Of a DNA stretch of 64,000 nucleotides, positions 31,164-56,400 are shown one piece after another. The notes under the pieces are model-generated. The model saw only the letters and a list, made by a program, of their open reading frames with translations, was not told the origin of the DNA and did no database searches. The position numbers and the translations under genes are program-made. The DNA lies in the sequence record NC_070871.1, one strand, 5' to 3'. The DNA is from Escherichia phage PGN829.1. Positions within the stretch are counted from its first letter, which is position 1. Each line of letters opens with the position of its first letter.

Positions 31164-33050
31164 ATGAACGAATTATTCTCACAAGGTGGTAAAGGCTCTA
31201 CTGGTATTCTTACCAATAAACAAGCCATTGCCCGTAAGTTTGGTGTTAAGCAGAATGAAGTAGTCTACTTTTCTGTAGGTGTAGACTTGGGGGGTTACAA
31301 AGTCATTTATGACAAGACTACTCAGCGTGCTTACTCTTTGCCCGTACTCCCGGTAGGAACCACTGCTGTAAGCCTGAATGAACAAGCAATCCTGGTTCAT
31401 TCAGCAGGTACTGTTGATTTGGGGGAACTTGGGAAAAGCAGGGGGGAGTATACTACCCTACCTGGCACGTTCTCCACCGGTTCCATAGTAAATACTAAGA
31501 ATGACATACTCGTTTACAATGATACTGGATACACCTACCAGGGTGCACTACCCGTTACTGTAGCTCCTGGATCATCCCCTGTTGGGGATGCTAATTGGGT
31601 TGCTATATCCGACGCATACCTGAAAGAGGAACTACTTAATAAGTATATACACTATGTTACCCCGCAAGTATTTGGTGCTATGGGGGATGGTGTTACTGAT
31701 GATACTGAAGCCATTCAAGCAGCAATGGATTACTGTCAACTGAATCGAACTAAGTTGGTGATTCCATCCAAGAAGTACATTATTACTAAACCCTTGTTGT
31801 ATCGCAATTTAGGCTTTTATAACTATGAAATTGAAGGACAAGGTGGTAATGCAATTATTGAATTAACTACCTTAGCTAAGACAGGTATAACTGAGCCAGA
31901 TGCTTACGGGGTGGATGTTAACGTAAATGCTGCTATTGTTGTATTAACAGATACTAATCAGAGTAAGTATGCTCGTATTTCAGGTATTCGCTTTACAACT
32001 ACAGTCAATGCTGACTACGGTATCTATTTTAGTATAACGGAGAACAGTTACGTATCAGATTGCCTCTTTGAAGGTTATAAGTTTGGTATATTTGATAAAG
32101 GTTCATGGATTCAACGTATATCCCGGTGTATTGCTCGTAACTGTACGGATACCGGGTTCTATATCCAAGACGGTACTAGTACCTACATAAAAGAATGCTA
32201 TGTTGATTATGCTAATCGTGGTTACTACTTAGCTAGTGGCTATAGTTCGATTATTGATTGTGCATGCGACCATACTACCCGCTGGAGCTATGTATTTGGC
32301 GGTGGTTCCGGTGATAACGCTACTACAGATACCCGAAGCATTAGTATGCATAATTGTGGTTCTGAAAATACAGGAACGGGTTCTGCTATCTACATAGATG
32401 GTAGGGTTGCATTAGGTATTTCTAATTATCATGCGGGTAATTACCCTCCATACCAAACAGCCAATACCCCCTATCTTGTAGATGTTTCAAGTAAGGGTTC
32501 AGATTCTCAAATTACTATGAGTAATGTGCGATGTGTTAACTTCTCTTACCTTATTAATGATGCCAGCAGCTCTAATAACTATTTTGACCTTACTAACGTT
32601 ACCTGTCGTAGTACATTAACTGGTAAATACAGTCTGGCTTCTGGAACCAGGGTACTAGAAAGAACCAAGGAAGGTGGTGTACGAATCATTACTAATACTG
32701 ATTTAACTGGTATTGGTATTGTTGCTGGGGATATTGTGGACTCACTCTCCGATAACACCACTTTATCTGGTTTGCGTAATGGGCAATTCATCTATCGTAA
32801 GGGTATATCTATCACCCGCTCTACTGGTTCCGCTGGTAGTACTGAAGTAACACTACCTATTAACTTACTGGATTATCGTGTAGCCGTAACCTTTAATGGG
32901 GGTATTGGTGCATTGCAGAGTATTGCCCCTGTATTTAGCGTTACTAACCAAACCCCTTCTGGGTTTACGGTTAACTGCGCAAGTTCTCGTGGTGACGAAG
33001 CGTGGACTACATTAGGTGCAGATATTATTGTATATGGCTTGAAGCAGTAA
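31164..33050 (+). CDS. second tailspike, pectate-lyase-fold (beta-helix) depolymerase-like
   Basis: 628 aa; GAMGDGVTDDTEAIQAAMDY motif then repetitive Asn/Gly/Thr-rich beta-helix-like segments. Confidence 0.55.
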   Translation: MNELFSQGGKGSTGILTNKQAIARKFGVKQNEVVYFSVGVDLGGYKVIYDKTTQRAYSLPVLPVGTTAVSLNEQAILVHSAGTVDLGELGKSRGEYTTLPGTFSTGSIVNTKNDILVYNDTGYTYQGALPVTVAPGSSPVGDANWVAISDAYLKEELLNKYIHYVTPQVFGAMGDGVTDDTEAIQAAMDYCQLNRTKLVIPSKKYIITKPLLYRNLGFYNYEIEGQGGNAIIELTTLAKTGITEPDAYGVDVNVNAAIVVLTDTNQSKYARISGIRFTTTVNADYGIYFSITENSYVSDCLFEGYKFGIFDKGSWIQRISRCIARNCTDTGFYIQDGTSTYIKECYVDYANRGYYLASGYSSIIDCACDHTTRWSYVFGGGSGDNATTDTRSISMHNCGSENTGTGSAIYIDGRVALGISNYHAGNYPPYQTANTPYLVDVSSKGSDSQITMSNVRCVNFSYLINDASSSNNYFDLTNVTCRSTLTGKYSLASGTRVLERTKEGGVRIITNTDLTGIGIVAGDIVDSLSDNTTLSGLRNGQFIYRKGISITRSTGSAGSTEVTLPINLLDYRVAVTFNGGIGALQSIAPVFSVTNQTPSGFTVNCASSRGDEAWTTLGADIIVYGLKQ

Positions 33051-33055
33051 ATTTA

Positions 33056-33086
33056 GGTAGTGGGGTAAATTTAGTACCCCACTACC
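33056..33086 (+). promoter_or_regulatory. perfect 12-bp hairpin just downstream of the tailspike stop (no U-tract)
   Basis: GGTAGTGGGGTA-AATTTAG-TACCCCACTACC; candidate RNA-stability or processing element rather than a classical terminator. Confidence 0.35.
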
Positions 33087-33308
33087 AAACCCATTAGTGT
33101 TTGCTGATTCCATTGCTCTAACTGTAAAAATGGTTAGGGTAACTCTCCCCCATAGGGTATTGAATATATCCAATGATGCCCTTTCTACAAAGCACAGGTT
33201 TTGCTCGTCTCTTTGTCTGGATGTATTTCAGCATACTAAGTATTATCTAAGAGTCATCTTATGATACGACCCCATTGGGGTTCCTAACTTCGTAACTACG
33301 GTAATAAT

Positions 33309-33638
33309 ATGAATGAATCGGGTGAACTGCTTCTAGTCAGACTGGAGGAACGATTGAAGACTCTGTTTGAGAACCAGACAAGGGACAGACAGGACCGTGA
33401 GAAACTGGAGGAAACTCTGGGAGAACTACGGGATTCAATCAATGACATAGGTAATAGACTAAAAAATGTGGAGGATAGCTTAGCTAAGAATGAACCTACT
33501 ATTGAAGAGTTCATCACTATTAAGCATAAAGTCGTTGGTGCTGGAATTTTTGGTAAGTGGGTGTGGGCTGGGGCAGGTGCAATTATTGGTGTATTGGCTG
33601 CTGCAAGACGGGAGATATTCGCATGGTTCGTAGGCTAA
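33309..33638 (+). CDS. lysis-cassette membrane protein (holin/antiholin candidate), coiled-coil N-terminus and C-terminal TM helix
   Basis: 109 aa; C-terminal hydrophobic GAGIFGKWVWAGAGAIIGVLAAA; directly upstream of holin-like and endolysin genes. Confidence 0.35.
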   Translation: MNESGELLLVRLEERLKTLFENQTRDRQDREKLEETLGELRDSINDIGNRLKNVEDSLAKNEPTIEEFITIKHKVVGAGIFGKWVWAGAGAIIGVLAAARREIFAWFVG

Positions 33639-33883
33639 AAAGAAAGATTGAGTTAGTACCTAACTGGAAAAGATGCTGGAAGTGGGCATCCGTTCAGATT
33701 AGTACATTTGGTTTAATTTTATTCTCTGCTGTAGATATCATCCAACCAATGGTGACAGGATTACCTCGTCACATCCTGGAAGATATTCCCCATGGTTCCA
33801 ATATTGCAATCGCACTGTTTGCCTTAAACATCATAGGCAGATTAATACGGTTCCGTCCAAAGGAAAATTCTCATGAAAGCTAA
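33623..33883 (+). CDS. holin-like small membrane protein (two TM helices)
   Basis: ORF trimmed to ATG at 33623 (MVRRLKRK...); two hydrophobic helices; stop overlaps endolysin start. Confidence 0.4.
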   Translation: MVRRLKRKIELVPNWKRCWKWASVQISTFGLILFSAVDIIQPMVTGLPRHILEDIPHGSNIAIALFALNIIGRLIRFRPKENSHES

Positions 33884-34508
33884 ACAGAAACTTGCTGCAA
33901 AAGGTGGTGCAGTGGGAGGGGTTGTCGCTGCTATCCTGGGGGCAGTGTTCTATATGGAAGGGGGTTATGTAAACAATCCTCGTGACCCAGGTGGGGAAAC
34001 TAATCATGGTATTACCCAATCGGTAGCTAAGTCTCATAAGGAGGTTCTGGCTACTGAATATGGTTGGGATGGTTCTATGAAAGGTTTATCTAAGGAGATG
34101 GCTGCTGAGATATACATTGATGACTACGTACTTAAGCCTAACTTCGTAGCCTTCGCTGATATATCTCCTGCTGTAACGCATAAGCTGGTAGATGCTGGTG
34201 TTAATACTGGTGTAACCCGTCCGGCTAAGTGGTTGCAGTTATCCCTTAATGAAATGTCCCGTGATGGCAAAGACTACCCTAAAATACAGGTTGATGGTAA
34301 AGTCGGTGCAAGTACTGTTAATGCTTATAAAGCATTACAGAAAAAACGAGGCAAAGTTGCAGCATGTCAGGTAATGATTAAGCTGCTTGATGCTAAACAA
34401 CTAAACCACTATACCTCATTAAACATGCCAGACTTTACGTATGGTTGGGTAGCTAACCGAATAGGCAATGTGCCACTGGAGGCATGTAATGAAGATGCTA
34501 ATCTCTAA
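33873..34508 (+). CDS. endolysin, GH108 N-acetylmuramidase with PG-binding domain and N-terminal signal-anchor-like segment (N4 gp61-like)
   Basis: 211 aa; EGGYVNNPRDPGGETNHGIT matches the GH108 catalytic motif; N-terminal GGAVGGVVAAILGAVF hydrophobic stretch. Confidence 0.7.
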   Translation: MKAKQKLAAKGGAVGGVVAAILGAVFYMEGGYVNNPRDPGGETNHGITQSVAKSHKEVLATEYGWDGSMKGLSKEMAAEIYIDDYVLKPNFVAFADISPAVTHKLVDAGVNTGVTRPAKWLQLSLNEMSRDGKDYPKIQVDGKVGASTVNAYKALQKKRGKVAACQVMIKLLDAKQLNHYTSLNMPDFTYGWVANRIGNVPLEACNEDANL

Positions 34509-34995
34509 AGGTTGGCCTTATCTTCTGGTGGTGGTCCTTGGGGCCACCATTTACTTTTGGGGCAATTCCAATGGACAGTCTACTGTTCAAAAGAAATGGG
34601 ATGCCCAAAAGGTCGAAGACCAAAGGGCAACACAAAAATTACAGGACAAATACAATGCTCTCCAAAGAAACCATAGTTATGAAGTCGGGTTACTCACTTC
34701 TCGGTTGCAGACGGCTGAGAGTAATTACGCAAGCGAGCTTGCTCGCGTTAGTAGTGATTATGACAGCCGGATGCAACAGTCTGAAAGACGGGCATCGGTA
34801 TATAAACGTCAAGCCGAAGCCGGAACCCTTGAGTGCAGAAGTCTTGCAAGCCATGCAGCCAAACTCGACAGCAGTCTTGAAGAAGGCAGACGTTTGGTTG
34901 AAGAACTCCGGGCAACTGTTAGACTCCGTGACAGCCAACTAATTGAGTTGGGTAAACAGATTCAGGCTGACCGTAAACTTTTTGAACAGGAATAA
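34489..34995 (+). CDS. i-spanin (Rz-like inner-membrane spanin)
   Basis: Trimmed to ATG at 34489 (GGAGG SD 6 nt upstream); N-terminal TM then coiled-coil periplasmic domain; follows endolysin. Confidence 0.5.
34679..34942 (+). CDS. o-spanin (Rz1-like lipoprotein) embedded in the +1 frame of the i-spanin gene
   Basis: Alternative-frame ORF inside 34489-34995; signal peptide ending in lipobox-like IMTAGC; Pro-rich mature part (KPKPEPLS); start codon uncertain. Confidence 0.4.
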   Translation: MKSGYSLLGCRRLRVITQASLLALVVIMTAGCNSLKDGHRYINVKPKPEPLSAEVLQAMQPNSTAVLKKADVWLKNSGQLLDSVTAN

Positions 34996-34997
34996 CT

Positions 34998-37268
34998 ATG
35001 GAACACCAAGACACTTTTAAGCCTTTACCAGACCCGGCTCAATCAGAGAAGTTAACGGACTGGAAGAAAGAACCAAGTATCCAATTACTGAAAGGTGATC
35101 TGGAATCAGCTAAACCTGCTCACGATGCAATCATGGCTCAGATTCGTGAGTGGAATGACTTGATGGAAGTTAAGGGTAAGGCTAAACCACCCAAAGTTAA
35201 AGGACGTTCGCAAGTTCAACCTAGACTGGTTCGCCGTCAGGCAGAGTGGCGTTATGCACCATTGTCTGAACCATTCCTCTCGTCTAATAAACTCTTTAAA
35301 GTAACTCCTGTTACTTTTGAAGATGAATTAGCTGCACGTCAGAATGAATTAGTTCTTAACTACCAATTCCGTACTCAGCTTAATAAAGTAAAACTGGTAG
35401 ATGATTACGTGCATAGTGTCGTAGATGACGGTACTGGTATTGCTCGTATCGGTTGGGAACGTAAGACTGTTAAGATTAAGACAGAAACCCCAGTCTTCCA
35501 GTTGTATCCAATTGAGAACCAGGAACAAGCAGATGTTCTTCAACAGGCTTTGCAGCTTCAGGCAGAGAATCCCCGTGAGTATGATGAAACAATGCCGGAA
35601 GATATTAAGGAAGCTGTTAACTACTTCAATGAAACTGGAGAAGCTACATATGCAATCCAGACCGGTGTTACTGAGGTAGAAGTAGAGAAAGCACTGGTTA
35701 ACAGACCTACCGTTGAAATGCTTAACCCCAATAACGTAGTTATTGATCCAAGCTGTAATGGTGATTTGGATAAGGCTTTGTATGCAGTCATTTCGTTTGA
35801 GACATGCAAAGCAGACCTCATGAAGAACAAAGACCGTTATCACAACCTGGATAAGATTGACTGGGAAAGTTCCAGTCCTATGACTGACCCAGACCATGAA
35901 AGTAAAACTCCTGGTGACTTCCAGTTTAAGGATGCACTTCGCAAGAAAGTAATTGCTTATGAGTATTGGGGATTCTACGACATTAACGATGATGGTTCAC
36001 TGGAACCAATTGTTGCTACCTGGATTGGCTCTACTCTTATTCGTATGGAGAAGAATCCATTCCCTGATGGTAAGTTACCGTTGGTAGTTGTTCCCTATAT
36101 GCCTCGTAAACGTGAACTCTATGGTGAAGCTGATGCTGAATTGCTAGGAGATAACCAAGCAATTCTTGGTGCAACCATGCGTGGGATGATTGACCTGTTG
36201 GGCCGAAGTGCAAATGGTCAACGTGGTTATCCTAAAGGGATGTTAGATACCCTGAACCGTCGTCGATACGATGATGGACAAGACTACGAATATAACCCAA
36301 TGCAGGGCAATCCTAGTCAGGCCATTATGGAACACAAGTTCCCTGAGTTACCCCAGTCGGCAATAGTAATGACTCAGATGCAAAACCAGGAAGCAGAAGC
36401 ACTAACGGGTGTTAAAGCATTCTCGGGTGGTGTAACTGGTGAAGCTTACGGAGATGTAGCTGCTGGTATTCGTGGTGTACTAGATGCAGCATCCAAACGT
36501 GAGATGGCAATCCTTCGTCGATTAGCTAAGGGTATGGCAGACATTGGTACTAAGATTTGTGCAATGAATGCTGTGTTCTTATCTGAGAAAGAAGTAGTAC
36601 GTATTACTAACGAGCAGTATGTAGAAATTAACCGAGAAGACCTTAAGGGTAACTTCGACATTGAGGTTGATATTAATACTGCTGAGATTGATAACCAGAA
36701 ATCCCAGGACTTGAGCTTCATGGTTCAAACGTTAGGTAATACGGTTGACCAAACTATTACGCTATCTCTTGTAGCTAAGATTGCAGAACTTAAACGTATG
36801 CCAGACCTTGCTCATGAGTTACGTACCTGGAAACCACAGCCAGACCCTATGGAAGAACAGCTTAAGCAATTGGCAATTCAGAAAGCACAGCTTGAGAATG
36901 AAGAGTTGCAAAGTAAGATTGCACTCAATATGGCTAAGGCTAAAGAGGCTGCTTCTAGTGGTGACCTTAAAGACCTGGATTATCTGGAACAGGAATCTGG
37001 TACTAAACATGCTCGTGACATGGAAAAACAAAAAGCACAATCTCAAGGAAACCAGAACCTTCAGATAACTAAGGCGTTGACAACACCTACTAAAGAAGGT
37101 GAAACTACCCCCAACATATCTGCTGCTGTTGGATATAACGCTTTGACTAATGGGAACTCTATACCAGAACGTGACTTAGCTGCACAACAAGACCCAGCTT
37201 ATTCACTTAGTTCCCAATTCTATGACCCTAGCCAAGACCCAGCATCGGCTCTTGGCATGAACTTGTAA
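34998..37268 (+). CDS. portal protein (N4 gp59-like)
   Basis: 756 aa; between lysis cassette and scaffold/MCP as in N4-like phages; size matches. Confidence 0.55.
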
Positions 37269-38882: not shown

Positions 38883-40085
38883 ATGTTAAACTATAACGCT
38901 CCAATTGACGGTCAGAAATCTAGCATTGATGGTGCTGGTTCCGATCAGATGAATACCTTTTACTGGCTGAAGAAAGCTATTATTCAGTCTCGTAAAGACC
39001 AGTACTTCATGCCACTGGCTAACACCATTAACATGCCGAAGAACTACGGTAAGACTGTTAAGGTGTATGAGTACGTTCCTCTGCTCGACGATAAGAACAT
39101 TAACGACCAGGGTATTGATGCTAATGGTGCTACCATCGTTAATGGTAACCTGTATGGTTCTTCTAAAGACGTTGGTAACATCACTTCCAAACTGCCTCTG
39201 CTGACAGAGAACGGTGGTCGTGTTAACCGTGTAGGCTTTACCCGTCTGTCTCGTGAAGGCTCCATCCATAAGTTCGGTTTCTTCTACGAATTTACCCAAG
39301 AGTCCCTGGACTTTGATTCCGATGACCAACTGAAAGAACACCTGTCCCGTGAACTGATGAATGGTGCTGTACAGTTGACTGAAGCTGTTCTCCAGAAAGA
39401 CCTGCTGGCTGCTGCTGGTACTGTACTGTATGCTGGTGCTGCTACCTCTGATGCTACCATCACTGGTGAAGGTTCTACCCCGTCTGTAGTTTCTTATAAG
39501 AACCTGATGCGTCTTGACCAGATTCTTACTGAGAACCGTACCCCGACTCAGACCACTATCATCACTGGTTCTAAACTGACCGATACCAAAGTACTTGGTG
39601 GTACTCGTGTAATGTACGTTGGTTCTGAACTGGTTCCAGAACTGAAAGCGATGAAAGACCTGTTCGGTAATAAAGCATTCATCGAAATTCAGCATTATGC
39701 TGATGCCGGTACTCTGATGAATGGTGAAGTTGGTTGTATCGACAAGTTCCGTATTATCCAGGTTCCTGAGATGCTGCATTGGGCAGGTGCTGGTGCTCAG
39801 GCTACTTCTAACCCGGGCTACCGTTCTTCTATGGTTGATGGTCAGGAACACTACGACGTATTCCCGATGCTGGTAGTTGGTGATGACTCCTTCTCTACCA
39901 TTGGCTTCCAGACTGATGGTAAGTCTGTTAAGTTCTCCATCATGACTAAGATGCCTGGTAAAGAAACTGCTGACCGTAATGACCCGTATGGTGAAACTGG
40001 TTTCAGTTCTATCAAGTGGTACTACGGTATTCTGGTTAAACGTCCAGAACGTCTGGCTCTGATTAAGACTGTTGCTCCTCTGTAA
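38883..40085 (+). CDS. major capsid protein (N4 gp56-like)
   Basis: 400 aa (N4 MCP about 401 aa); host-optimised codon usage suggesting high expression; strong terminator immediately after. Confidence 0.65.
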
Positions 40086-40103
40086 TAGTCCGAAATAAAA
40101 CAA

Positions 40104-40128
40104 GGGGGACATTAGTCCCCCTCTTAAT
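40104..40128 (+). terminator. intrinsic terminator after the major capsid gene
   Basis: 7-bp stem GGGGGAC/GTCCCCC, ATTA loop, then TCTTAATAAAA. Confidence 0.5.
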
Positions 40129-40152
40129 AAAACTAAATGAACCACAGGAAAT

Positions 40153-40794
40153 ATGAACATGAGCATTAACGATAAACCGACCGCTGACGTAGAAGTAAAC
40201 GTACAGGGCAACGAAGATACCGTTAACGATATTGCAATGCCTAGTGAACTTGAAGTTCTTAAGCAACGTGCAACGTTGATGAATATCAAGTTCTCTAACA
40301 ACATCTCCGTTGAAAAACTTCGTGAAAAAATTGAAGCAGCACAAGTAAAAGATGAACCAGTAGTAGAAGAAGCTGCTGTTAATCCGCTTGGTGAAAAACA
40401 GGAAGCTGGTGTTAAGAAGATGACTCTTGGTCAAAAGATTCGTGCAGAACAGACTCGACTGATTCGTGTACGTATCCAGAACCTTGACCCTAAGAAGAAA
40501 GACCTACCAGGTGAGATTATCACCGTAGCTAACGAATATATGGGTACTGTGCGTAAGTTTGTTCCATTCGGTGAAGTAACCGACAATGGTTATCACATTC
40601 CGTATTGTATCTACGAGTTCCTTAAAGAGCGTAAGTTCATCAACATTACGACCCGTAAAGGTAAGAATGGCTTACCGGATATTCGTGCAACTGAAGCACG
40701 AGAGTTCTCCATTGAGGTACTGCCTCCGTTGACTGAAGCTGAATTAGCTCAACTAGCTCAGGCACAGATTGCTGCTGGTAGCCTGAACGATTAA
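40153..40794 (+). CDS. virion structural protein
   Basis: 213-aa ORF downstream of MCP. Confidence 0.35.
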   Translation: MNMSINDKPTADVEVNVQGNEDTVNDIAMPSELEVLKQRATLMNIKFSNNISVEKLREKIEAAQVKDEPVVEEAAVNPLGEKQEAGVKKMTLGQKIRAEQTRLIRVRIQNLDPKKKDLPGEIITVANEYMGTVRKFVPFGEVTDNGYHIPYCIYEFLKERKFINITTRKGKNGLPDIRATEAREFSIEVLPPLTEAELAQLAQAQIAAGSLND

Positions 40795-47466: not shown

Positions 47467-50400
47467 TTGAACAGGAAACATGCTATGTCAACATTTGACC
47501 GTCTGGCAGGTTTCGCAGACAGCATCACTAATGCTAAGCAAGTCGATGTCTCTACTGCAACCTCTCAGAAGCAAGCTGCACAAGGGCAAAGCCCTTTCCA
47601 ATTAACCCCAGAGAATGCTTACAATCTCCAAACTGGTCGTGTAGGTAATCTTGGAATTGGTGCATTCGAACCAGGTTCACTTCAGGCAGATTTCACTCAA
47701 GCCTCCCCATTAGAAATCCTTAATAAATACGGTAATGAGCAAGGTCTACAGATTATTAATAGCCGAGCTAATGCTGCTGATGTTGTACGTCAGGACTTAT
47801 CTAAACAACGTACTAACGCGGAAGCATTTGGTGATACTCTTTCTGGTGTTGGTCTTGGTGTTGCTAATACCCTTGGGGGCATTGCTGCTCTTGGTACAGG
47901 TCTGGTCAATGATAATGCCGGAGCATCCATTGCTTCCGGGATGGATTGGCTGAATGAAGGTGTACACAATTTACAGTCTGATGCACTGAATGCTACCCGT
48001 AAGGTTGTTCAGAATCAGAACCAGATTTCTGCACAAAAGAACCAGAAGCTCTATGAAGAAGATATTAAAAATGGGGAGAGCAGTTTGGTTGCCTCCCTGT
48101 CTCGCATTGGTCGTGATGCTTTTGATTCTGTTGCTAATACACTTGATAATGGTATGGCTGCTACCGATGGGCTGAGTGAAGGTGTTGGTTCTCTCTTTAC
48201 TGGTGGTCCATTAATTCGTGGTGTATCCGCACTCGGTAAAGTAATGGTAGGTGGAGATAAAGCCGTTAAAGGTATTACCCTAGCTGCTGAGTTAGGTTCA
48301 CGTCCTGCACAGATTGCATTGTCTGCTGGTCGTGTTGCTGCACCTGCTATTGCAATTGGTGGTATGGAAGCTGGTGGTGCATACCAGCAGACTGCTTCTG
48401 AAATCATGAAGATGTCCCATCAAGAATTGGCAAGTAAGTCTCCTGTTTATCAACAACATATCGCTGATGGTTTATCTCCTGATGAAGCACGTCGTCAAAC
48501 TGCATCTGAAACGGGTATCATTGCTGCTAGCTTAACTGCTCCAGTTGCTGCTGCTACTGGTCCACTGGTATCTAAGTTTGAACTTAACCCACTTAAGGTA
48601 GGTTCACTGGCTGGTGCTGGCTCTAACATGCTTCGTGAAACCGTAGAAGAAGGTATTCAGTCTGGTACAAGTCAGTTTGCACAGAACAAGGCAATTCAGG
48701 GTAATGTAGATGCTAAGCGTGATCTGCTTAAAGGTGTCGGTGAGCAAGCAGGTCTTGGTGCACTCTATGGCTTCGGTAGTGCTGGTGTTTCTCAGGCTCC
48801 TGGTGCAACTGTTAAAGCTGTTGGTGCTTCTGCTGGCCCTGCTCTTCGTACTACCCTGGCTGGTGCTTCTCTGGTTGGTAGTGCATTAGCAAAAGCTGCT
48901 TCTCCTATTACTAACATCCTGGTTCAACGTGGTGAAGAAGTTGCTAAGCGTAATGAACAAGCATCCCCTGTATCTGATGCCACTGTTAATGCTGCTGCAC
49001 AAGAAGCTACTGCTCAGGCAGAACAAGCACAAGCAACTGTACAGGAAGCAGTAGATGCAATGGATATTTCTCCTGAAGAGAAAGCTGCTGCTACTCAGTA
49101 TGCTGCTGACTTAACTCAGGCAATGAAGTTTGACCCAGTAGAGTTAGAGCAAGCTAATCCAGCAATCCGTGAAGCCGTTTCTGGTTCCACTAACCGTGTT
49201 GAAGCTATTCAGAAGATGGCTGACCTGGTTAATACTGCCGAAGACCCTAACGTTCAAATGGAAGCTGCAATCCAGATGTATGACAATATCATGTCTATGG
49301 ATAGCTTCATTAACCGTGACCCAGGTGCTCTGGCTAACCTGGAACAAGGTTCCCCTGCTGCTGCAATCGTTGACCAGTTCTCTGGTCTGATGGCTAACGT
49401 TCAGAATACACCTAAAGTACTTCGTGCATTCCGTGCTATTCATTCTATGATTCAGGAACAGGCTGAAGCAGGTAAACTGAAAGCTACTGAAGAAGCCAAC
49501 CAAGCCCAAGCAAACAATATTGCTATGGCTGCTGATATGTCTCCAGAAGTACTGGATGCTGATTCAGTGAACATGATTCTGAAACATGCAAGTGAAGGTA
49601 AGATTACACTGGGGAATCATCAGCGTGCTGCCCTGCAATCGGCTGCTGCCTTGTTACAGGGTGCACGAGAATTTGATGCTAAAGCAGAAGAACTAGGCTT
49701 ACGTCCTCAAGACATTGTTAGTAAACAGATTAAAACCGACGAGTCTCGTTCTAATGAAGGTCAGTACTCTGCGTTGCAACATGCTAAACGCATTCGTTCT
49801 GCGTACAACTCTGGTAATTTCGATTTGGCTTCCGCTTACCTCGACGACTTTATGAAGTTCGCCCAGCACATGCAGAATAAGGTCGGAGCGTTGAATGAGC
49901 ATCTGATTTCTGGGAATGCGGATAAGAATAAGTCTGTCCATTATCAGGCTCTTACTCCCTCCCGTGAATGGGTACGTAGTCGTACTGGTCTTGGTGTCAA
50001 TCCGTATGATACCAAGTCGGTTAAGTTTGCCCAGCAAGTAGGACTGGAGGCCAAAACCGTAGCTGATATTGCTAACGCACTTGCTACGGCTTACCCGGAG
50101 CTTAATGTTTCTCATGTGAAGGTTACTCCATTAGATTCACGTCTGGACAAGCCTGCTGCCCAGGTAGTTAAAGAGTTCCGTCAAGGTGGTCTTGATGCCA
50201 CTCAGTCTCAACAGACCAATGAACCAGTGAATCAGGTTGATGAAACTCCTGCACCAGCGCAAGAGACTACTACTACTGTACAGCCTAAAGCTAAACCAGT
50301 GGTAGAAAATAAGACTGTTCCTGTTAAAGAGGCTAGTTCAAAAGCAGAAGAAGTCTCTACTACTAAGTCTGAAACAGTAGATGCTACCCTCACCAATGAG

Positions 50401-53400
50401 GATACCACTCAAAAAGTAGCTGAAACTAAAACGGAAATGGAAACAGTTTTCCCTGTCTATAACAATGACAAGACACCGAACCAGTTCCTGAAATCATTTA
50501 CCCTGCCGGAAGAACCTAAGTCTCGCACCATTGGTTCTGAATCCCCTTTGACTGATATTAAGCAAGCACTGTCTTCTACTGCACGCTTTGAAGCATTCAC
50601 TCAAAAAGAAAATAACGCTCTCACAAGTGATGTGATTAAGCGTTATCAGGACTTAATGGGCTTTGGTGAAACTCTGAAGACTACTCTGTCTGATCGTCTG
50701 GCTAAGTTTCTTGCTAATAAGAACGTTGGTAAACGCTTTGCAGAAGGCACAGAGGCTAACCGTTGGGTAGGTGGTAAGTTACTTAATATCGTAGAGAAAG
50801 ACGGAGACACCTTTAAGTTCAATGACCAGTTGTTAGAGACTGCTGTACTTGCTGGTCTGCAATGGCGACTGACTGCTACACAGAATGCTGCTGTTAAAGA
50901 CATGAAAGATGTAGCTGCTATTACTGGTGTAGAGGCATCTCTGTTACCTGAAGGTATTCTGGCTGACTTCGAGAATGCTCAGACTCTGGTTGAAGCTACT
51001 AACTCACTGGCTCAAAAGATTGAATCTTACTGGGGTTTGAATCGCAATCCAAATGCACCACTGGGTTATACCAAAGGTATCCCAATGGCAATGGCTACGG
51101 AGATTCTGTCTTCTTTCATTGAGATGGGTGAAGTTAAAGAATCTATGCTGGATGTGTCTGAGTTTGACCCAGACTCTAATAAGACCGTCGGTCTGTATAC
51201 CATTGAGAAGCTGGATGATAACGATGCCATTAACAAGTTCCCTACTGCTATCGAGGAAGCTGTTCTCGTAGAACCAGAAGAGAAAATGTACTTTGGTGAT
51301 GATATTCCTTCCGTGGCTCAAACTCAGTTACGTAACCCTGCTGTTAAGAATACCCCAGAGCAGAAAGCTGCTCTTAAAGCAGAACAGGCTACCGAGTTCC
51401 GTGTACACATGCCGATGGTTAACTTCTATGAAGCATTAGGTCGTGACAACATTCTGGAACTGATGGGTGCTGGTACTCTTAATCCTGAACTGCTGAACGT
51501 GAACACTGCTAAGTCACTGGAGGGTAAAAACCTGTCAGTGTCTATGGCATATGATTCCCTGTTCGGTGTAATCAACCAGTTACAGGAACAGGAGAATGGT
51601 CTGGATACGCCTATTCACTATGGTTACAACATGACCCGTGTAGGTCGTATGCAGATGTTAGGTAAGAACAACCCACAATCCAGTAAACTGGTTCGTGAAG
51701 CAATTCTGCCAACCTTCTCTACTATTGACTTGAGTAATGAAAATAGCCAAACATTCTCTGACTTCCAGCTAGGACTGGCTCAGGCATTGGGTATCAAGGT
51801 ACATAACATGTCCCGTGAAGCTATGTCTGAAAAGTTGACCAAGGCTCTGGAAGGTAATCTGAAACCTGCCGTTGATATGGTGGTTGAGTTTGATAAGTCT
51901 GGTCACTTACCAGCTAATGCAGTGGATATTCTGAAAACATCTCTGGGCGGCGATAAATCATTCGTAGCTCTTATGGCTCTTATGGAATATGCCCGTTACC
52001 TGAACAGTGATGACCGTGCCAACTTTAATACCCCTCTGTACGTTGAAGCCGATGGTGTAACTAACGGACCAATCAACGCAATGGTATTAATGACCGGTGG
52101 TAAGTTCACTTCAGACTGGGTTAAGAATACTGCTAAAGGTGGCTTGTTCTTCGGTAAAGCTGGTAAGACTATGAATGAACATCGTTCACAGGATGACAGT
52201 GTTGACCTGTATGAAGCATCTACCAATGGTCTGCAACAAGCACTTAATGAGTTACGTACTACTTACCGTAACAACGTTCCGGTTATGAACCAAATGAATC
52301 ATCTTCAGAAGTTAATGGACCTGTTTATTAAAGACTTTAACCTGAATGAAGACGGTACTCTGGACCTGAAACGTGGTATCGCTAAAAACCCACTGACTAT
52401 TACCATCTATGGTTCTGGTGCTCGTGGTATTGCTGGCAAGATGGTTAGTGCAATTACTGACACCATCTATGAACGCTTCAGTGATGTTCTGCAAGCTCGT
52501 GCTGCTGACCCTAGCATTTCCCCAGCTATGGCAATGTTTGGTAAGGAGGCTGCGTCTGAGGCTGATGCTCAGGCTATGCTGGATACTTTCCTTACTTCTA
52601 TGGAAGCACTGACTGGTAATGTTCCAGTTATGCGTAAAGGTGAACTGTCTATTCAACAGGTAGAAGGTGCTCTGACTGGTAAGTTAGACCCTCAGAAGTT
52701 TACCGTATCAGGAAATGCTCTGAAGAACTTACAAGAGAACATGCTTCACCTGTTCGTTGAACCAATGCGTACTGGTATCCGTAATACTGTTGGTGAAGGT
52801 CTGATGCATTCTACTGAGAACTTGCAGAAGGCTACCCAGATTCAGTCACTGGTATTGCAGGATATGTTCCAGCAACGTGTCCAGGAGAAGCTAGCAGAAA
52901 AAGAAAAAGACCCAACATGGAAAAAGGGTGATTTCTTAACACAGAAAGAACTGAATGAAATCCAGGAATCATTATCCCCACTAGCTCCAATGATTGAGAC
53001 TGGTTCACAGACTTTCTACATTGCTGGCAGTGAAAATACTGATGTTGCTAACCAAGTTCTGGCTACCAACTTAGATGATCGTATGCGTGTGCCAATGAGC
53101 ATCTATGCTCCTTCACAGGCAGGTGTTGCAGGTATTCCTTTTATGACCATTGGTACTGGCGATGGCATGATGATGCAGACCCTTTCTACTATGAAAGGTG
53201 CTCCGAAGAATACCCTGAAAATCTTTGATGGTATGAACATTGGTATCAACAACATCACTGATGCAAGTCGTAAAGCTAATGAGGCTGTATACACTTCCTG
53301 GCAGGGTAACCCTATCAAGAATGTCTACGACTCCTTCTCTAAGTTCATGAAGAATGTAGACTTCAGCAAACTGTCTGATGAAACCAAACAGGCTATCGCT

Positions 53401-56400
53401 AAATCTGCTCTGGAATATGACCAGCGTGAAGGTGCTACCGATGACCTGTTACGTGTTGGTGCTGAACAGATTGAACGTAACCTGCGTAATATTGCTCTGG
53501 GTGTAGATATTCGTCACAAAGTAATGAACCAGGTACAGACTACTGTTGACCAGATGGCTGCTGTTGGTGCTCCTTATGTGAACAACGGTAAAATCTCTCT
53601 GGAAGGTCTGACCGTAGACCAACAAGTAGCTAAGCTAAATGAACTGTTCGATGCTGAATTAAACAAACGTCGTGATGCAGTACGTGCTGCTAAAGTAGAA
53701 CCAGTGAAAGAAGTGCCAGCAATGGAACAGGTTGGTCGTGTACTGAAGTCTGGTGTACGCCTACTGTCTAATACTGCTATCTCTAAGCTGGCTAAAGAGA
53801 TGTCTCCGGAACAGCAAGCAGTACTGAAAGAAGTACAGAAATCCCTTGCTGCTAAAGACTATAAGGTTGTTTACGGTACACCTTCCCAACTGGATGCTTA
53901 TGCTATTGAGAAGAATATTACTCGCCCAGCACCAGAAGATATTGAAGCTGCTGAAGCTGGTAATGCGTATGGTTGGACTAACTTTGAAGATAAGACCATC
54001 TACTTAGTTACCCCTTCCTTAGAGACTCTGGTTCATGAATTGGTGCATGCTTCTACTTTTGAATCTGTACTGGCTCACTATGAGGGTACTCCTAATGAAG
54101 CGGTCCAGAACATTGAAGACCTGATGAACCAGTTCCGTGCTCTGGATGTTAAGGATGAATCCCCGGCAGTTCGGGAAGCATATGCAGATGCTCTTAATAC
54201 TATTAACGGTCATTTATCTAATGGCTTTATTGAGCCAGCAATGGCTAAAGCTGCTGCACTGAATGAGTACATGGCATGGGGTTTAACCAACCGTGAACTG
54301 ATTAGTAAGCAGAAGAAAACCACTGCACTTAAGACTATGGTTCAGGCTGTATATGAAGCAATTAAACGTCTGGTATTCGGGCGTAAGAAAGCACCAGCTA
54401 ATGCAGATGATATGTTCTCTGGCTTACTGTTTAACTCGTCCGTAGTTATGCGTGGGCAAGCTCCTACTGCTGCTGTAGTCAAAGATACTACTCTGTTCCA
54501 TAACAAAACGTATGGTGACAATACTCGTCTGGAAGAGCTAGGGAAAACCTTCGATAAACTGATTACTGACTACATTGGTTCTGAACCAGTACAGCAAGTA
54601 ATTCGTAAAGGTAAGTTCTCTGATGCAGTGGTTAATGCGACTAAAGTAACTCGTGATGTTCAGGCTCATGGCTTCACTATGAATATGCAGGAACAACGTC
54701 TCTTTACTAACATTGTTGCTGCTCTGGCTACTGAGGCTGCTATTAATCCTGCTGCTCTGGCTCGTGCGCAGGAATACTACACACATGTTACTAAGAACCT
54801 GACCGTTGAGTCATTCATGACTGACCCAGATAGTACTAACCCTGCTGACCGTTACTATGCACAGCAGAAGTTCGATACCATCATGGGTGCTAACAACATT
54901 GAGTTTGATTCACAAGGTCGTTCCTCCTTACTGCCTACCTTTATTGGTCTGGCGATGGTAAGTGAAGAGGTACGTAAAGTGCTGGCTGATATTCCAGTTA
55001 TGAAAGTAGACAAGAAATCTGGCAATACCGCTGATGCAATGCTGACTAACATCGGTACTGCTGCAATGGCTAGTCTGAATGCTCGTGTAGCAGGAGATAC
55101 TAAAGCTACCAACGTACAGGAAGGTATGGATGCACTGGCTCAGACAATCATGCAGACCAGTCTTAATGCACAATCCTTCTATGATTCCGTTGCTACTCCT
55201 ACGGGTAATGCTATTGATCGTGCTAACCAGTATCTGGTGGACTCTATTGATGTACTGTCTACCCGTGCTTTAGAAGGTGCTCGTGAAGTTGCAGCTAATA
55301 CCAAGAACCCGTTGGTTAAAGGTGCTGCCCATGCTGCACAATTAATAGCTGCTATTGCTACAGAGAAGAATGGTGCAATCGTAGCCGAAGGTGTTATGGC
55401 TGCAATGAACCAAGGTAAAGTATGGCAACCCTTTCACGATCTGGTTAATGACTTAACTGGTCGTACTAAGAGTAATGCTTCTGTATATGATTTGATTAAG
55501 GCAGTGCGTGCCCAGGTACAGGCTGACCGTCAACAGTTCCGTGAACATCTGCCCACCACTATCGCATCTAAGTTCAGCCGTAAGCTGACTAATGATGAGT
55601 GGAAAGCAATGCATACCGGTATGGGTAAAACCGACTTAGCTGTTCTGCGTGACACTATGTCTCTGGCTGAAATTCGTGACCTGCTGACTGACCAGAAGAT
55701 TGTTGACCGTGAGGTTAATAAACTGGAAGCAGATTTGCAGAAACAAGCTGGTCGTAACTGGCCTTTGATTAACCGTAAATCTAAGCAACTGGCTCAGTAC
55801 ATGATTAATGGAACAGTTGGTAATAACCTGCTGCGTAATGCTACAGCAATCTCTCGTATGCTGGGTGAACGTCAGGCTGCACGTTCTACTGTAGACGTAG
55901 CTCAACTGGATAAACTGATTACTCTGTATGCACTGGAAGCAATGAGTAAAACTGACCGCGAGGTGTTATCTTCACTGGCTCAGACAGAGATTGAAGGCAT
56001 GGACTTCGCTACTTCTTATCTGGTTGGTCAGCGTAAAGATGAAATGGCTAAAGCCAAATCTGATACTCGTGCAACTCTGAACCAGTACAAAGGGTATATT
56101 CCTGGTGAGACTAAACAGGGTGTTAACTTGATAGTTGCTGAAGATAGTCAGTTTGCTGATTTGATTGAGAAGTCCTATGTACGTCTGGGTACTTATCAGG
56201 GTAGCTCTGCTAATCGTGGTCCAGCACGTAGCTACTACTTTGCACCGGTACAGGCACAGGCTCCATTCTCGCAAGGTATCTTACAGAACGTTCGCAATAC
56301 TGCTGGTGGTGTAGACCTTGGTACAGGCTTTACGATGGGTACAATGGTAGCTGGTCGTATCACTGACAAGCCTTCTGTAGACCGTATCACTAAAGCACTG

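Follow-up and report, generated by a model that had tools for sequence, protein, structure and literature searches.

Which gene products bring about lysis of the host in Escherichia phage PGN829.1, and which of them sets its timing? The question is raised by five overlapping late genes at positions 33309-34995 on the plus strand of a stretch of 64,000 nucleotides of this phage (sequence record NC_070871.1; the whole stretch is hereafter called the window). An earlier note, made from the letters of the sequence, had read this region as a lysis cassette comprising two membrane proteins, an endolysin of the signal-anchor-release (SAR) type and a pair of Rz/Rz1-like spanins, and all elements it quoted were located there. 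Our analysis indicates that the region is very probably a multi-gene lysis cassette belonging to an N4-like podophage (G7C group, Gamaleyavirus), and a gene-for-gene orthologue of gp63-gp62-gp61-gp60/gp60a of phage N4. The cassette is a standard host-lysis module and is already known, because it is annotated in near-identical genomes and because the N4 orthologue has been dissected by experiment (Awuah et al., bioRxiv 10.1101/2025.11.12.688109).

Gene order, gene overlaps and the position between tail-fibre and portal genes are the same in the window as in N4. Identity to the N4 proteins amounts to 67% for gp63, 60% for gp62, 66% for gp61, 54% for gp60 and 75% for the mature part of the outer-membrane spanin (o-spanin). 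Conservation extends to the composition of the SAR segment, the EGGY motif of the endolysin, the Receiver and membrane region of gp63, the length of the mature o-spanin (56 residues in both) and the upstream extension of gp62. On the other hand, the N-terminal 60 residues of gp63 have diverged from N4, as has the N-terminal half of the inner-membrane spanin (i-spanin), with 30% identity in its N-terminal part. When cloned, the gp60-63 genes of N4 bring about lysis of E. coli at about 25 minutes (bioRxiv 10.1101/2025.11.12.688109).

Nucleotide identity of the cassette amounts to 97.7% with Escherichia phage U1G and lies at 94-96.5% for many further phages of the G7C type (Gamaleyavirus, Enquatrovirinae, Schitoviridae). 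Altogether 93 phage records match it, 56 of them with a query coverage of at least 80%, and 11 records of Gamaleyavirus type lie at 95-98% nucleotide identity. Endolysin, holin, Rz-like spanin and portal genes are annotated beneath the nucleotide match in related records. St11Ph5 and G7C share the gene order gp63.1 (tail fibre), gp63, gp62, gp61, gp60.2/gp60.1 and gp59 (portal); here gp63 is labelled as hypothetical, gp62 as holin, gp61 as N-acetylmuramidase, gp60 or gp60.2 as Rz-like, and gp60' or gp60.1 as embedded Rz1-like, so that both spanin coding sequences are already annotated in these two phages. The G7C-like coliphages of the genus Gamaleyavirus (G7C, St11Ph5, U1G, Bp4, ECBP1, pSb-1 and others) display an identical architecture with only point differences. 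The window furthermore contains an open reading frame (ORF) of 3456 amino acids (47467-57837), matching in size the virion RNA polymerase, a hallmark of N4-like phages.

The endolysin and its N-terminal segment

The endolysin ORF (33873-34508) reads MKAKQKLAAKGGAVGGVVAAILGAVFYM-EGGYVNNPRDPGGETNHGIT, where EGGYVNNPRDPGGETNHGIT is the GH108 signature at residues 29-48, as read from the translation. The protein matches the Pfam families PF05838 (Glyco_hydro_108, residues 24-113, with 72.0 bits at a cutoff of 21.2 and E=6e-20) and PF09374 (PG_binding_3, residues 117-196, with 32.0 bits at a cutoff of 24.6 and E=1.5e-7), as well as PHROG phrog_315 (endolysin). Its nearest solved structures, by sequence match to the PDB, are the Sen1395 GH108 muramidase (6V3Z, E=7e-27 over endolysin residues 23-197) and 6V40, a related protein with a PG_binding_3 domain (E=5e-20). 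The catalytic loop pattern of the family, EGGY...DPGG...T.[HW]G.T, is present as E29-GGYVNNPRDPGGETNHGIT, the signature aligns with KEGGYVNHPDDKGGPTKWGIT of Sen1395, and the Glu of the loop is kept in 13 of the 14 intact endolysin homologues aligned. E14 is the catalytic residue of TtsA, which is closely homologous to Sen1395 (PMC6996933); the alignment suggests Glu29 as its equivalent and hence as the predicted catalytic acid of the endolysin. Purified N4 gp61 has muramidase activity on peptidoglycan (bioRxiv 10.1101/2025.11.12.688109, where Stojkovic & Rothman-Denes 2007 is cited for the enzyme). By family assignment, the gp61-like protein is a GH108 N-acetylmuramidase.

TtsA and Sen1395 of the Salmonella type 10 secretion system (PDB 6V40, 6V3Z; PMC6996933) belong to the same GH108 and PG_binding_3 fold family and share the EGGY catalytic loop. 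However, these enzymes serve non-lytic toxin export, whereas the window enzyme is predicted to serve lysis, and the solved chains match the endolysin only from residue 19-23 on, leaving the SAR segment of the phage protein uncovered.

In the paradigm of this type of lysis, represented by S21/R21 of phage 21 and Lyz of P1, a Sec-exported endolysin sits on a weakly hydrophobic, Gly/Ala-rich N-terminal tether and is released by depolarisation from small holes. Residues 11-28 of the window endolysin (GGAVGGVVAAILGAVFYM) form an 18-residue run that carries no charged residue and consists of Gly, Ala and Ser to 50%. It is preceded by K2, K4, K6 and K10 and immediately followed by Glu29 of the EGGY motif. 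The composition of this segment equals that of the SAR segment of N4 gp61 (VGGVGGVIAAIIAAVFAV), and a segment of this type was found in all 13 intact endolysin homologues aligned. The earlier note had placed a GH108 motif behind an N-terminal hydrophobic stretch, and both halves of that description hold, with the GH108 match above the Pfam cutoff and an uncharged hydrophobic segment present at the N-terminus.

N4 gp61 behaves as a SAR endolysin: it associates with the membrane, shows slow leakage, functions together with a pinholin and, when no holin is present, gives slow lysis; it complements endolysin defects in both the lambda and the phage 21 background (bioRxiv 10.1101/2025.11.12.688109). 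Addition of one negative charge to its SAR segment (G12E) leads to rapid lysis (bioRxiv 10.1101/2025.11.12.688109), and the counterpart of this glycine is kept in the window endolysin as G15. By analogy, SAR behaviour may be inferred for the gp61-like endolysin.

The N-terminus could alternatively be an ordinary Sec signal peptide that is cleaved off, or else anchor the enzyme permanently, in which case the timing of lysis would be independent of a pinholin. Hydrophobicity is in line with this proposal and does not single out a SAR segment: on the Kyte-Doolittle scale (19-residue window) the segment reaches a maximum of 1.78, level with the other anchors, on the Hessa scale a crude sum did not show it as weaker, and neither measure set it apart from the segments of the i-spanin, the gp62-like protein and the o-spanin. 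It is by Gly/Ala/Ser content alone that the endolysin segment is separated from these three, which reach 18-29%; the corresponding value for the gp63-like segment is 52%. Inspection by eye revealed no AxA-type (small-x-small) cleavage site between the hydrophobic core and EGGY, which starts at once after the core. This absence, the composition shared with N4 gp61, and the early lysis that follows single charge insertions into the N4 SAR endolysin (bioRxiv 10.1101/2025.11.12.688109) all speak against a signal peptide or permanent anchor, and we consider this proposal very unlikely.

The gp63-like and gp62-like membrane proteins

A SAR endolysin would imply a pinholin as trigger, as the earlier note had reasoned, and the homology to the SAR endolysin gp61 and the pinholin gp63 of N4 supports this argument. 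The two membrane proteins announced in that note are indeed present, as an ORF of 109 amino acids with a hydrophobic C-terminus (gp63-like) and one of 86 amino acids with two hydrophobic stretches (gp62-like). Which of the two is the trigger had been left unnamed; the N4 data point to the single-segment gp63-like protein.

The gp63-like protein consists of a long, charged and alpha-helical N-terminal part, predicted to be cytoplasmic, followed by one Gly/Ala-rich C-terminal membrane segment (about residues 75-99) with GxxxG/A-type spacing. Its only match among the PHROGs is phrog_5211 (E=3e-50), a family of unknown function. The stretch PTIEEFITIKHKVVGAG, which is the 'Receiver domain' of N4 gp63, is identical to N4 and invariant in most of the 13 gp63 homologues aligned, and GKWVWAGAG..AAARREIFAWF is identical or nearly so. 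In N4, gp63 is a lethal protein with a single C-terminal membrane segment; it complements a defect of the phage 21 pinholin S21 and not one of the lambda S (S105) holin, and its pinholin behaviour, with small depolarising holes that set SAR endolysins free and retain soluble ones, was established by complementation together with carbonyl cyanide m-chlorophenyl hydrazone (CCCP) assays (bioRxiv 10.1101/2025.11.12.688109). Changes within the Receiver segment of N4 gp63, such as T65I and T71A, cause rapid lysis (bioRxiv 10.1101/2025.11.12.688109), and residues equivalent to T65 and T71 are conserved in the gp63-like protein. By analogy with N4, the gp63-like single-segment protein is likely the pinholin of the cassette, rather than the two-segment protein that is called 'holin' in databases.

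The parallel with phage 21 concerns logic and not protein family. N4 gp63 replaces S21, and N4 gp61 works in an R21-deficient lysogen (bioRxiv 10.1101/2025.11.12.688109). On the other hand, S21 has two segments, whereas the gp63-like protein displays one C-terminal segment behind a cytoplasmic N-terminal domain of about 75 residues, and the window endolysin is a GH108 muramidase instead of an enzyme of the T4-lysozyme type (GH24). No profile or sequence match to S21-type families was obtained with the cassette proteins in Pfam and PHROGs. The first segment of the gp62-like protein contains only 25% Gly/Ala/Ser and carries an Asp, unlike the Gly/Ala-rich first segment of an S21-type pinholin, which is able to leave the bilayer. 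In its predicted mode of action the cassette resembles the phage 21 system, without belonging to the S21 protein family.

In the gp62-like protein, a basic N-terminus is followed by two membrane segments at about residues 21-44 and 59-75; the predicted topology is N-in/C-in, and both termini are basic. The protein matches Pfam DUF7940 (PF25612; 52.4 bits against a cutoff of 27, E=7.8e-14) and PHROG phrog_1356 'holin' (E=2.7e-30). Its ATG at 33623 is preceded by GGGAG 7 nucleotides upstream, which is the only strong Shine-Dalgarno sequence among its two starts. N4 gp62, likewise a two-segment protein, is non-essential and was designated a lysis regulator with late, triggerable holin-like activity (bioRxiv 10.1101/2025.11.12.688109). 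Following N4, the gp62-like protein is predicted to be a lysis regulator with late holin-like activity.

These roles could also be exchanged, such that the two-segment gp62-like protein would be the true timing holin and the gp63-like protein an accessory or virion-associated protein, for example a tape measure. The phrog_1356 match is in line with this arrangement, as is the classic class II holin topology of the gp62-like protein (two segments, both ends inside), and N4 gp62 has triggerable lethal activity with late release of both types of endolysin (bioRxiv 10.1101/2025.11.12.688109). The arrangement is also the one suggested by GenBank, where the gp62 homologue is labelled 'holin' in many records and the gp63 homologue 'tail length tape-measure protein T' or hypothetical. 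However, a membrane protein of 109 amino acids cannot be a tape measure; this label stems from automatic annotation and contradicts the pinholin function of N4 gp63. An exchange of roles furthermore conflicts with N4 genetics, and gp63 and gp62 co-occur in 60 of 65 N4-like genomes (bioRxiv 10.1101/2025.11.12.688109). Such an exchange therefore appears improbable, and the gp63-like protein is retained as the likely pinholin.

Both genes display possible alternative starts. Codon 16 of the gp63-like gene is TTG with GGAGG 5 nucleotides upstream (window 33345-33356, plus strand), at the position of the alternative start Met17 of N4 gp63. This arrangement is found also in St11Ph5 and U1G, with ATG as the corresponding codon in N4, and is absent from G7C, Jgk1, Axy11, HN03 and others. 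Because of this absence the codon was not taken as a conserved feature, and a conserved dual start of the gp63-like gene, missing in G7C, Jgk1 and more distant relatives, is doubtful. Upstream of the gp62-like ATG, the frame is open for 22 codons from GTG 33557 (33557-33622, plus strand), which would yield a long form of 108 amino acids and overlaps the codons of the gp63 membrane segment in another frame. This extension matches the long form of N4 gp62 (109 amino acids), with a weak Shine-Dalgarno sequence in the window; an open extension that begins with a start codon at the same position also occurs in N4 and most relatives examined, and is absent in Pokken and Holyagarpour.

The deposited U1G record (MZ394712.1, locus 1389-2257) displays apparent frameshifts in the 5' parts of its gp62 and gp61 homologues. 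Both are annotated there as two fragments with unaligned N-terminal residues, whereas the window has both genes intact. These frameshifts are probably a sequencing or assembly error of that record.

The spanin pair and a proposed course of lysis

The i-spanin has an N-terminal membrane anchor (about residues 9-25), a long, charged part predicted to be periplasmic, and a single Cys (C115). It matches PHROG phrog_6197 'Rz-like spanin' (E=8e-77), and the match to Pfam DUF2514 is marginal (E=0.014, below cutoff). With GGAGG 6 nucleotides upstream and the same start annotated in St11Ph5, ATG 34489 is the best-supported start, and not the ATG at 34468 that opens the ORF.

Wholly inside the i-spanin gene, in its +1 frame and ending 53 nucleotides before its stop, lies a second ORF that the earlier note had proposed as an embedded o-spanin with the string IMTAGC. 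The string is present, and the frame is open over 34538-34942. The start is ambiguous between ATG 34655 (95 amino acids) and ATG 34679 (87 amino acids), neither of which has a strong Shine-Dalgarno sequence. The product displays a basic n-region, a hydrophobic core and a lipobox, TAGC (34763-34774), at residues 29-32 of the 87-residue form, with the Cys codon at 34772-34774, followed by a mature part of 56 residues that starts with CN. The box fits the lipobox pattern [ILMFTV][^REKD][GAS]C (after the spanin survey of Kongari et al. 2018). There is no Asp retention signal, because the residue at +2 is Asn. In N4 the lipobox is IVGC, whereas the window has TAGC at the end of a long signal (32-40 amino acids).

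The expected lipoprotein-like signal was thus found, but the description of the mature part as Pro-rich was overstated: 4 of its 56 residues are Pro (7.1%), and it contains no Cys other than the lipidated one. Rz1 of lambda consists of Pro to about 25% and has a Cys for an intermolecular disulfide. The window mature o-spanin differs in both respects, and the i-spanin has C115 as its single Cys. A Pro-rich o-spanin and intermolecular disulfides are a lambda-specific trait and not a defining one for spanins in general. The window pair otherwise resembles Rz/Rz1 in its N-terminally anchored i-spanin, its long helical periplasmic domain and its small lipoprotein wholly embedded in the +1 frame, while in sequence the two pairs are only marginally similar.

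The +1 frame could be open by chance, with the outer membrane disrupted by the i-spanin alone or by another factor. When the i-spanin codons were resampled synonymously 20,000 times using the codon usage of the window itself, 5.3% of the trials produced a +1 ORF of at least 87 codons starting with ATG, and 0.7% produced such an ORF with a lipoprotein-like signal. By itself, on these figures, the embedded ORF is suggestive and not decisive, and the uncertain start without a strong Shine-Dalgarno sequence would likewise be compatible with chance. Neither Pfam (no match) nor PHROGs (only E=0.04, to a family of unknown function) provided a significant match for the o-spanin, and its support is therefore one of conservation and not of a family model.

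This conservation is extensive. In the +1 frame, 14 of 14 N4-like loci keep a lipobox Cys, after which comes a mature part 56-63 residues long whose end lies before the stop of the i-spanin. The loci stem from Escherichia, Klebsiella, Pseudomonas, Achromobacter, Burkholderia, Erwinia, Stenotrophomonas and Alcaligenes phages, and i-spanin identity over them falls from 98% to 36%. In phage C121, read by hand, the box is SSGC, outside the lipobox pattern used at first. Across the relatives, the core of the mature o-spanin is 46-98% identical to that of the window, which equals or exceeds the identity of the i-spanin in its entirety. A second Rz/Rz1 coding sequence, the o-spanin, is annotated in St11Ph5, G7C, Pokken and Holyagarpour. 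The o-spanin frame was the feature for which the earlier note had asked for a comparison with relatives.

The o-spanin codons begin at position 2 of the i-spanin codons, and therefore a third-position change that is silent in the i-spanin falls on, and changes, the second position of a codon of the o-spanin. At i-spanin codons with identical residues, synonymous differences amount to 57% outside the overlap (162/286) and 29% inside it (148/514), counts that are pooled over ten pairwise comparisons and hence non-independent. The suppression is about two- to three-fold and has the same direction in 10 of the 10 comparisons. Lower synonymous change within the overlap is as expected under dual coding. 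In addition, N4 gp60 with gp60a fully complements a lambda RzRz1 spanin defect (bioRxiv 10.1101/2025.11.12.688109). On the conservation data, a chance ORF is effectively refuted and has hardly any probability left: the embedded +1 frame is a real o-spanin gene. Disruption of the outer membrane by the window's i-spanin together with its o-spanin is predicted by analogy with N4.

A course of lysis can be built on what was observed at this locus, namely the gene anatomy, the protein families, the orthology to N4, the conserved SAR segment, the Receiver and membrane region of gp63, the embedded frame and its dual-coding constraint. Export, tethering, triggering and release, as well as the separate roles of gp63 and gp62, are transferred from the N4 experiments and the general pinholin/SAR/spanin model. 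In this model the host Sec system would export the late-expressed GH108 muramidase, whose Gly/Ala-rich SAR segment would keep it tethered to the inner membrane in an enzymatically restrained state, with the predicted catalytic Glu29 at the end of this segment and the catalytic loop held at the membrane. The gp63-like protein would accumulate in the inner membrane and, at a set time, form small lethal pinholes through which the membrane potential would collapse. Depolarisation may then free the SAR segment from the bilayer all around the cell, and the released enzyme would degrade the murein. The two-segment gp62-like protein would tune the timing and could serve as a slow back-up holin. The i-spanin in the inner membrane and the o-spanin as outer-membrane lipoprotein would form a complex that spans the periplasm and, once the murein is gone, may disrupt the outer membrane, probably by membrane fusion.

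Several points weigh against this assignment of roles. The functional assignments are carried over from one preprint on an orthologue that is 54-67% identical, and not from work on the window phage. The orientation of the gp63-like membrane segment is ambiguous, with basic residues on both flanks, and predictions of the orientation of N4 gp63 are in conflict (bioRxiv 10.1101/2025.11.12.688109). Many GenBank labels for gp63 and gp62 homologues, as described above, differ from the roles proposed here, and no convincing sigma-70-like promoter was found upstream of the cassette on the plus strand (scan of 32900-35200). Late promoters of N4 are not expected to match the sigma-70 consensus. Finally, G7C, the type phage of the group to which the window phage belongs, was reported to lack the lysis inhibition seen in N4, and regulatory inputs may therefore differ despite the identical Receiver segment.

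The window keeps three features that are tied to lysis regulation in N4: the gp63 Receiver segment, the upstream start for a long form of gp62 (GTG 33557), and the TTG at codon 16 of gp63 preceded by a Shine-Dalgarno sequence. From these one may speculate that a dual-start pinholin/antiholin pair is encoded here, together with a latent lysis-delay circuit used under certain conditions, a possibility that we regard as unlikely. If it were true, comparing the cassette with N4 would pinpoint what confers lysis inhibition. A phage group without lysis inhibition, set beside N4 with it, is in any case a natural comparison in which both carry the same conserved regulatory segment. Otherwise the locus offers little new biology, and its practical value is one of annotation: the gp63-like protein, widely mislabelled 'tail length tape-measure protein' or 'hypothetical', is likely a pinholin, the gene labelled 'holin' (gp62-like) probably encodes no more than a regulator, and many records lack the embedded o-spanin.

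Layout of the locus and neighbouring features

Consecutive genes of the cassette (Table 1) overlap by 16 nucleotides (gp63-like and gp62-like), 11 nucleotides (gp62-like and gp61-like) and 20 nucleotides (gp61-like and i-spanin). The cassette is flanked by a tailspike-like gene of 628 amino acids (31164-33050) on one side and a portal-like gene of 756 amino acids (34998-37268) on the other, with a gap of 2 nucleotides between the i-spanin stop and the portal ATG.

Table 1. Positions in the window of the cassette genes and of two segments of the endolysin.
Feature	Position	Strand	Length or residues	Remarks
gp63-like	33309-33638	+	109 aa	predicted pinholin
gp62-like	33623-33883	+	86 aa	predicted lysis regulator; frame open from GTG 33557
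gp61-like endolysin	33873-34508	+	211 aa	GH108 + PG_binding_3
SAR-type segment of endolysin	33903-33956	+	residues 11-28	
GH108 signature of endolysin	33957-34016	+	residues 29-48	
gp60-like i-spanin	34489-34995	+	168 aa	ORF opens at ATG 34468
gp60a-like o-spanin	34655 or 34679 to 34942	+	95 or 87 aa	+1 frame, open 34538-34942

Terminator-like matches on the plus strand within 32900-35200 were set aside, as all of them lie inside coding sequence. A perfect 12-bp hairpin (33056-33086, plus strand; GGUAGUGGGGUA, a 7-nucleotide loop and UACCCCACUACC) begins 6 nucleotides past the tailspike stop, with a folding energy of -22.4 kcal/mol (z=-4.4 against shuffles). It was not called by the terminator scan because no U tract follows it. 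The equivalent place is annotated as 'repeat_region' in G7C and as 'terminator' in Pokken. The hairpin probably separates the tail-fibre transcript from the lysis and portal genes, or stabilises a 3' end.

The tailspike-like gene itself (plus strand) has a full-length match only in U1G (98.4%), while other Gamaleyaviruses match its first 266 nucleotides only. This pattern suggests a typical swap of a receptor-binding module behind a conserved N-terminal adaptor, and would imply a U1G-like host range. ARAGORN found no tRNA or tmRNA genes across the whole window.

An ORF of 472 amino acids (38886-40304, minus strand) runs antisense to, and codon-aligned with, a major-capsid-like gene of 400 amino acids (38883-40085). 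TTA, CTA and TCA together make up a single one of the 400 codons of the capsid-like gene; in other late genes they account for 2.9%, and the chance of finding none is about 8e-6. In N4 the antisense frame is broken, with a longest stretch of 183 amino acids. The ORF was rejected as a hidden gene, since extreme avoidance of these codons explains it and N4 does not conserve the frame; most likely it is a side effect of strong codon bias.

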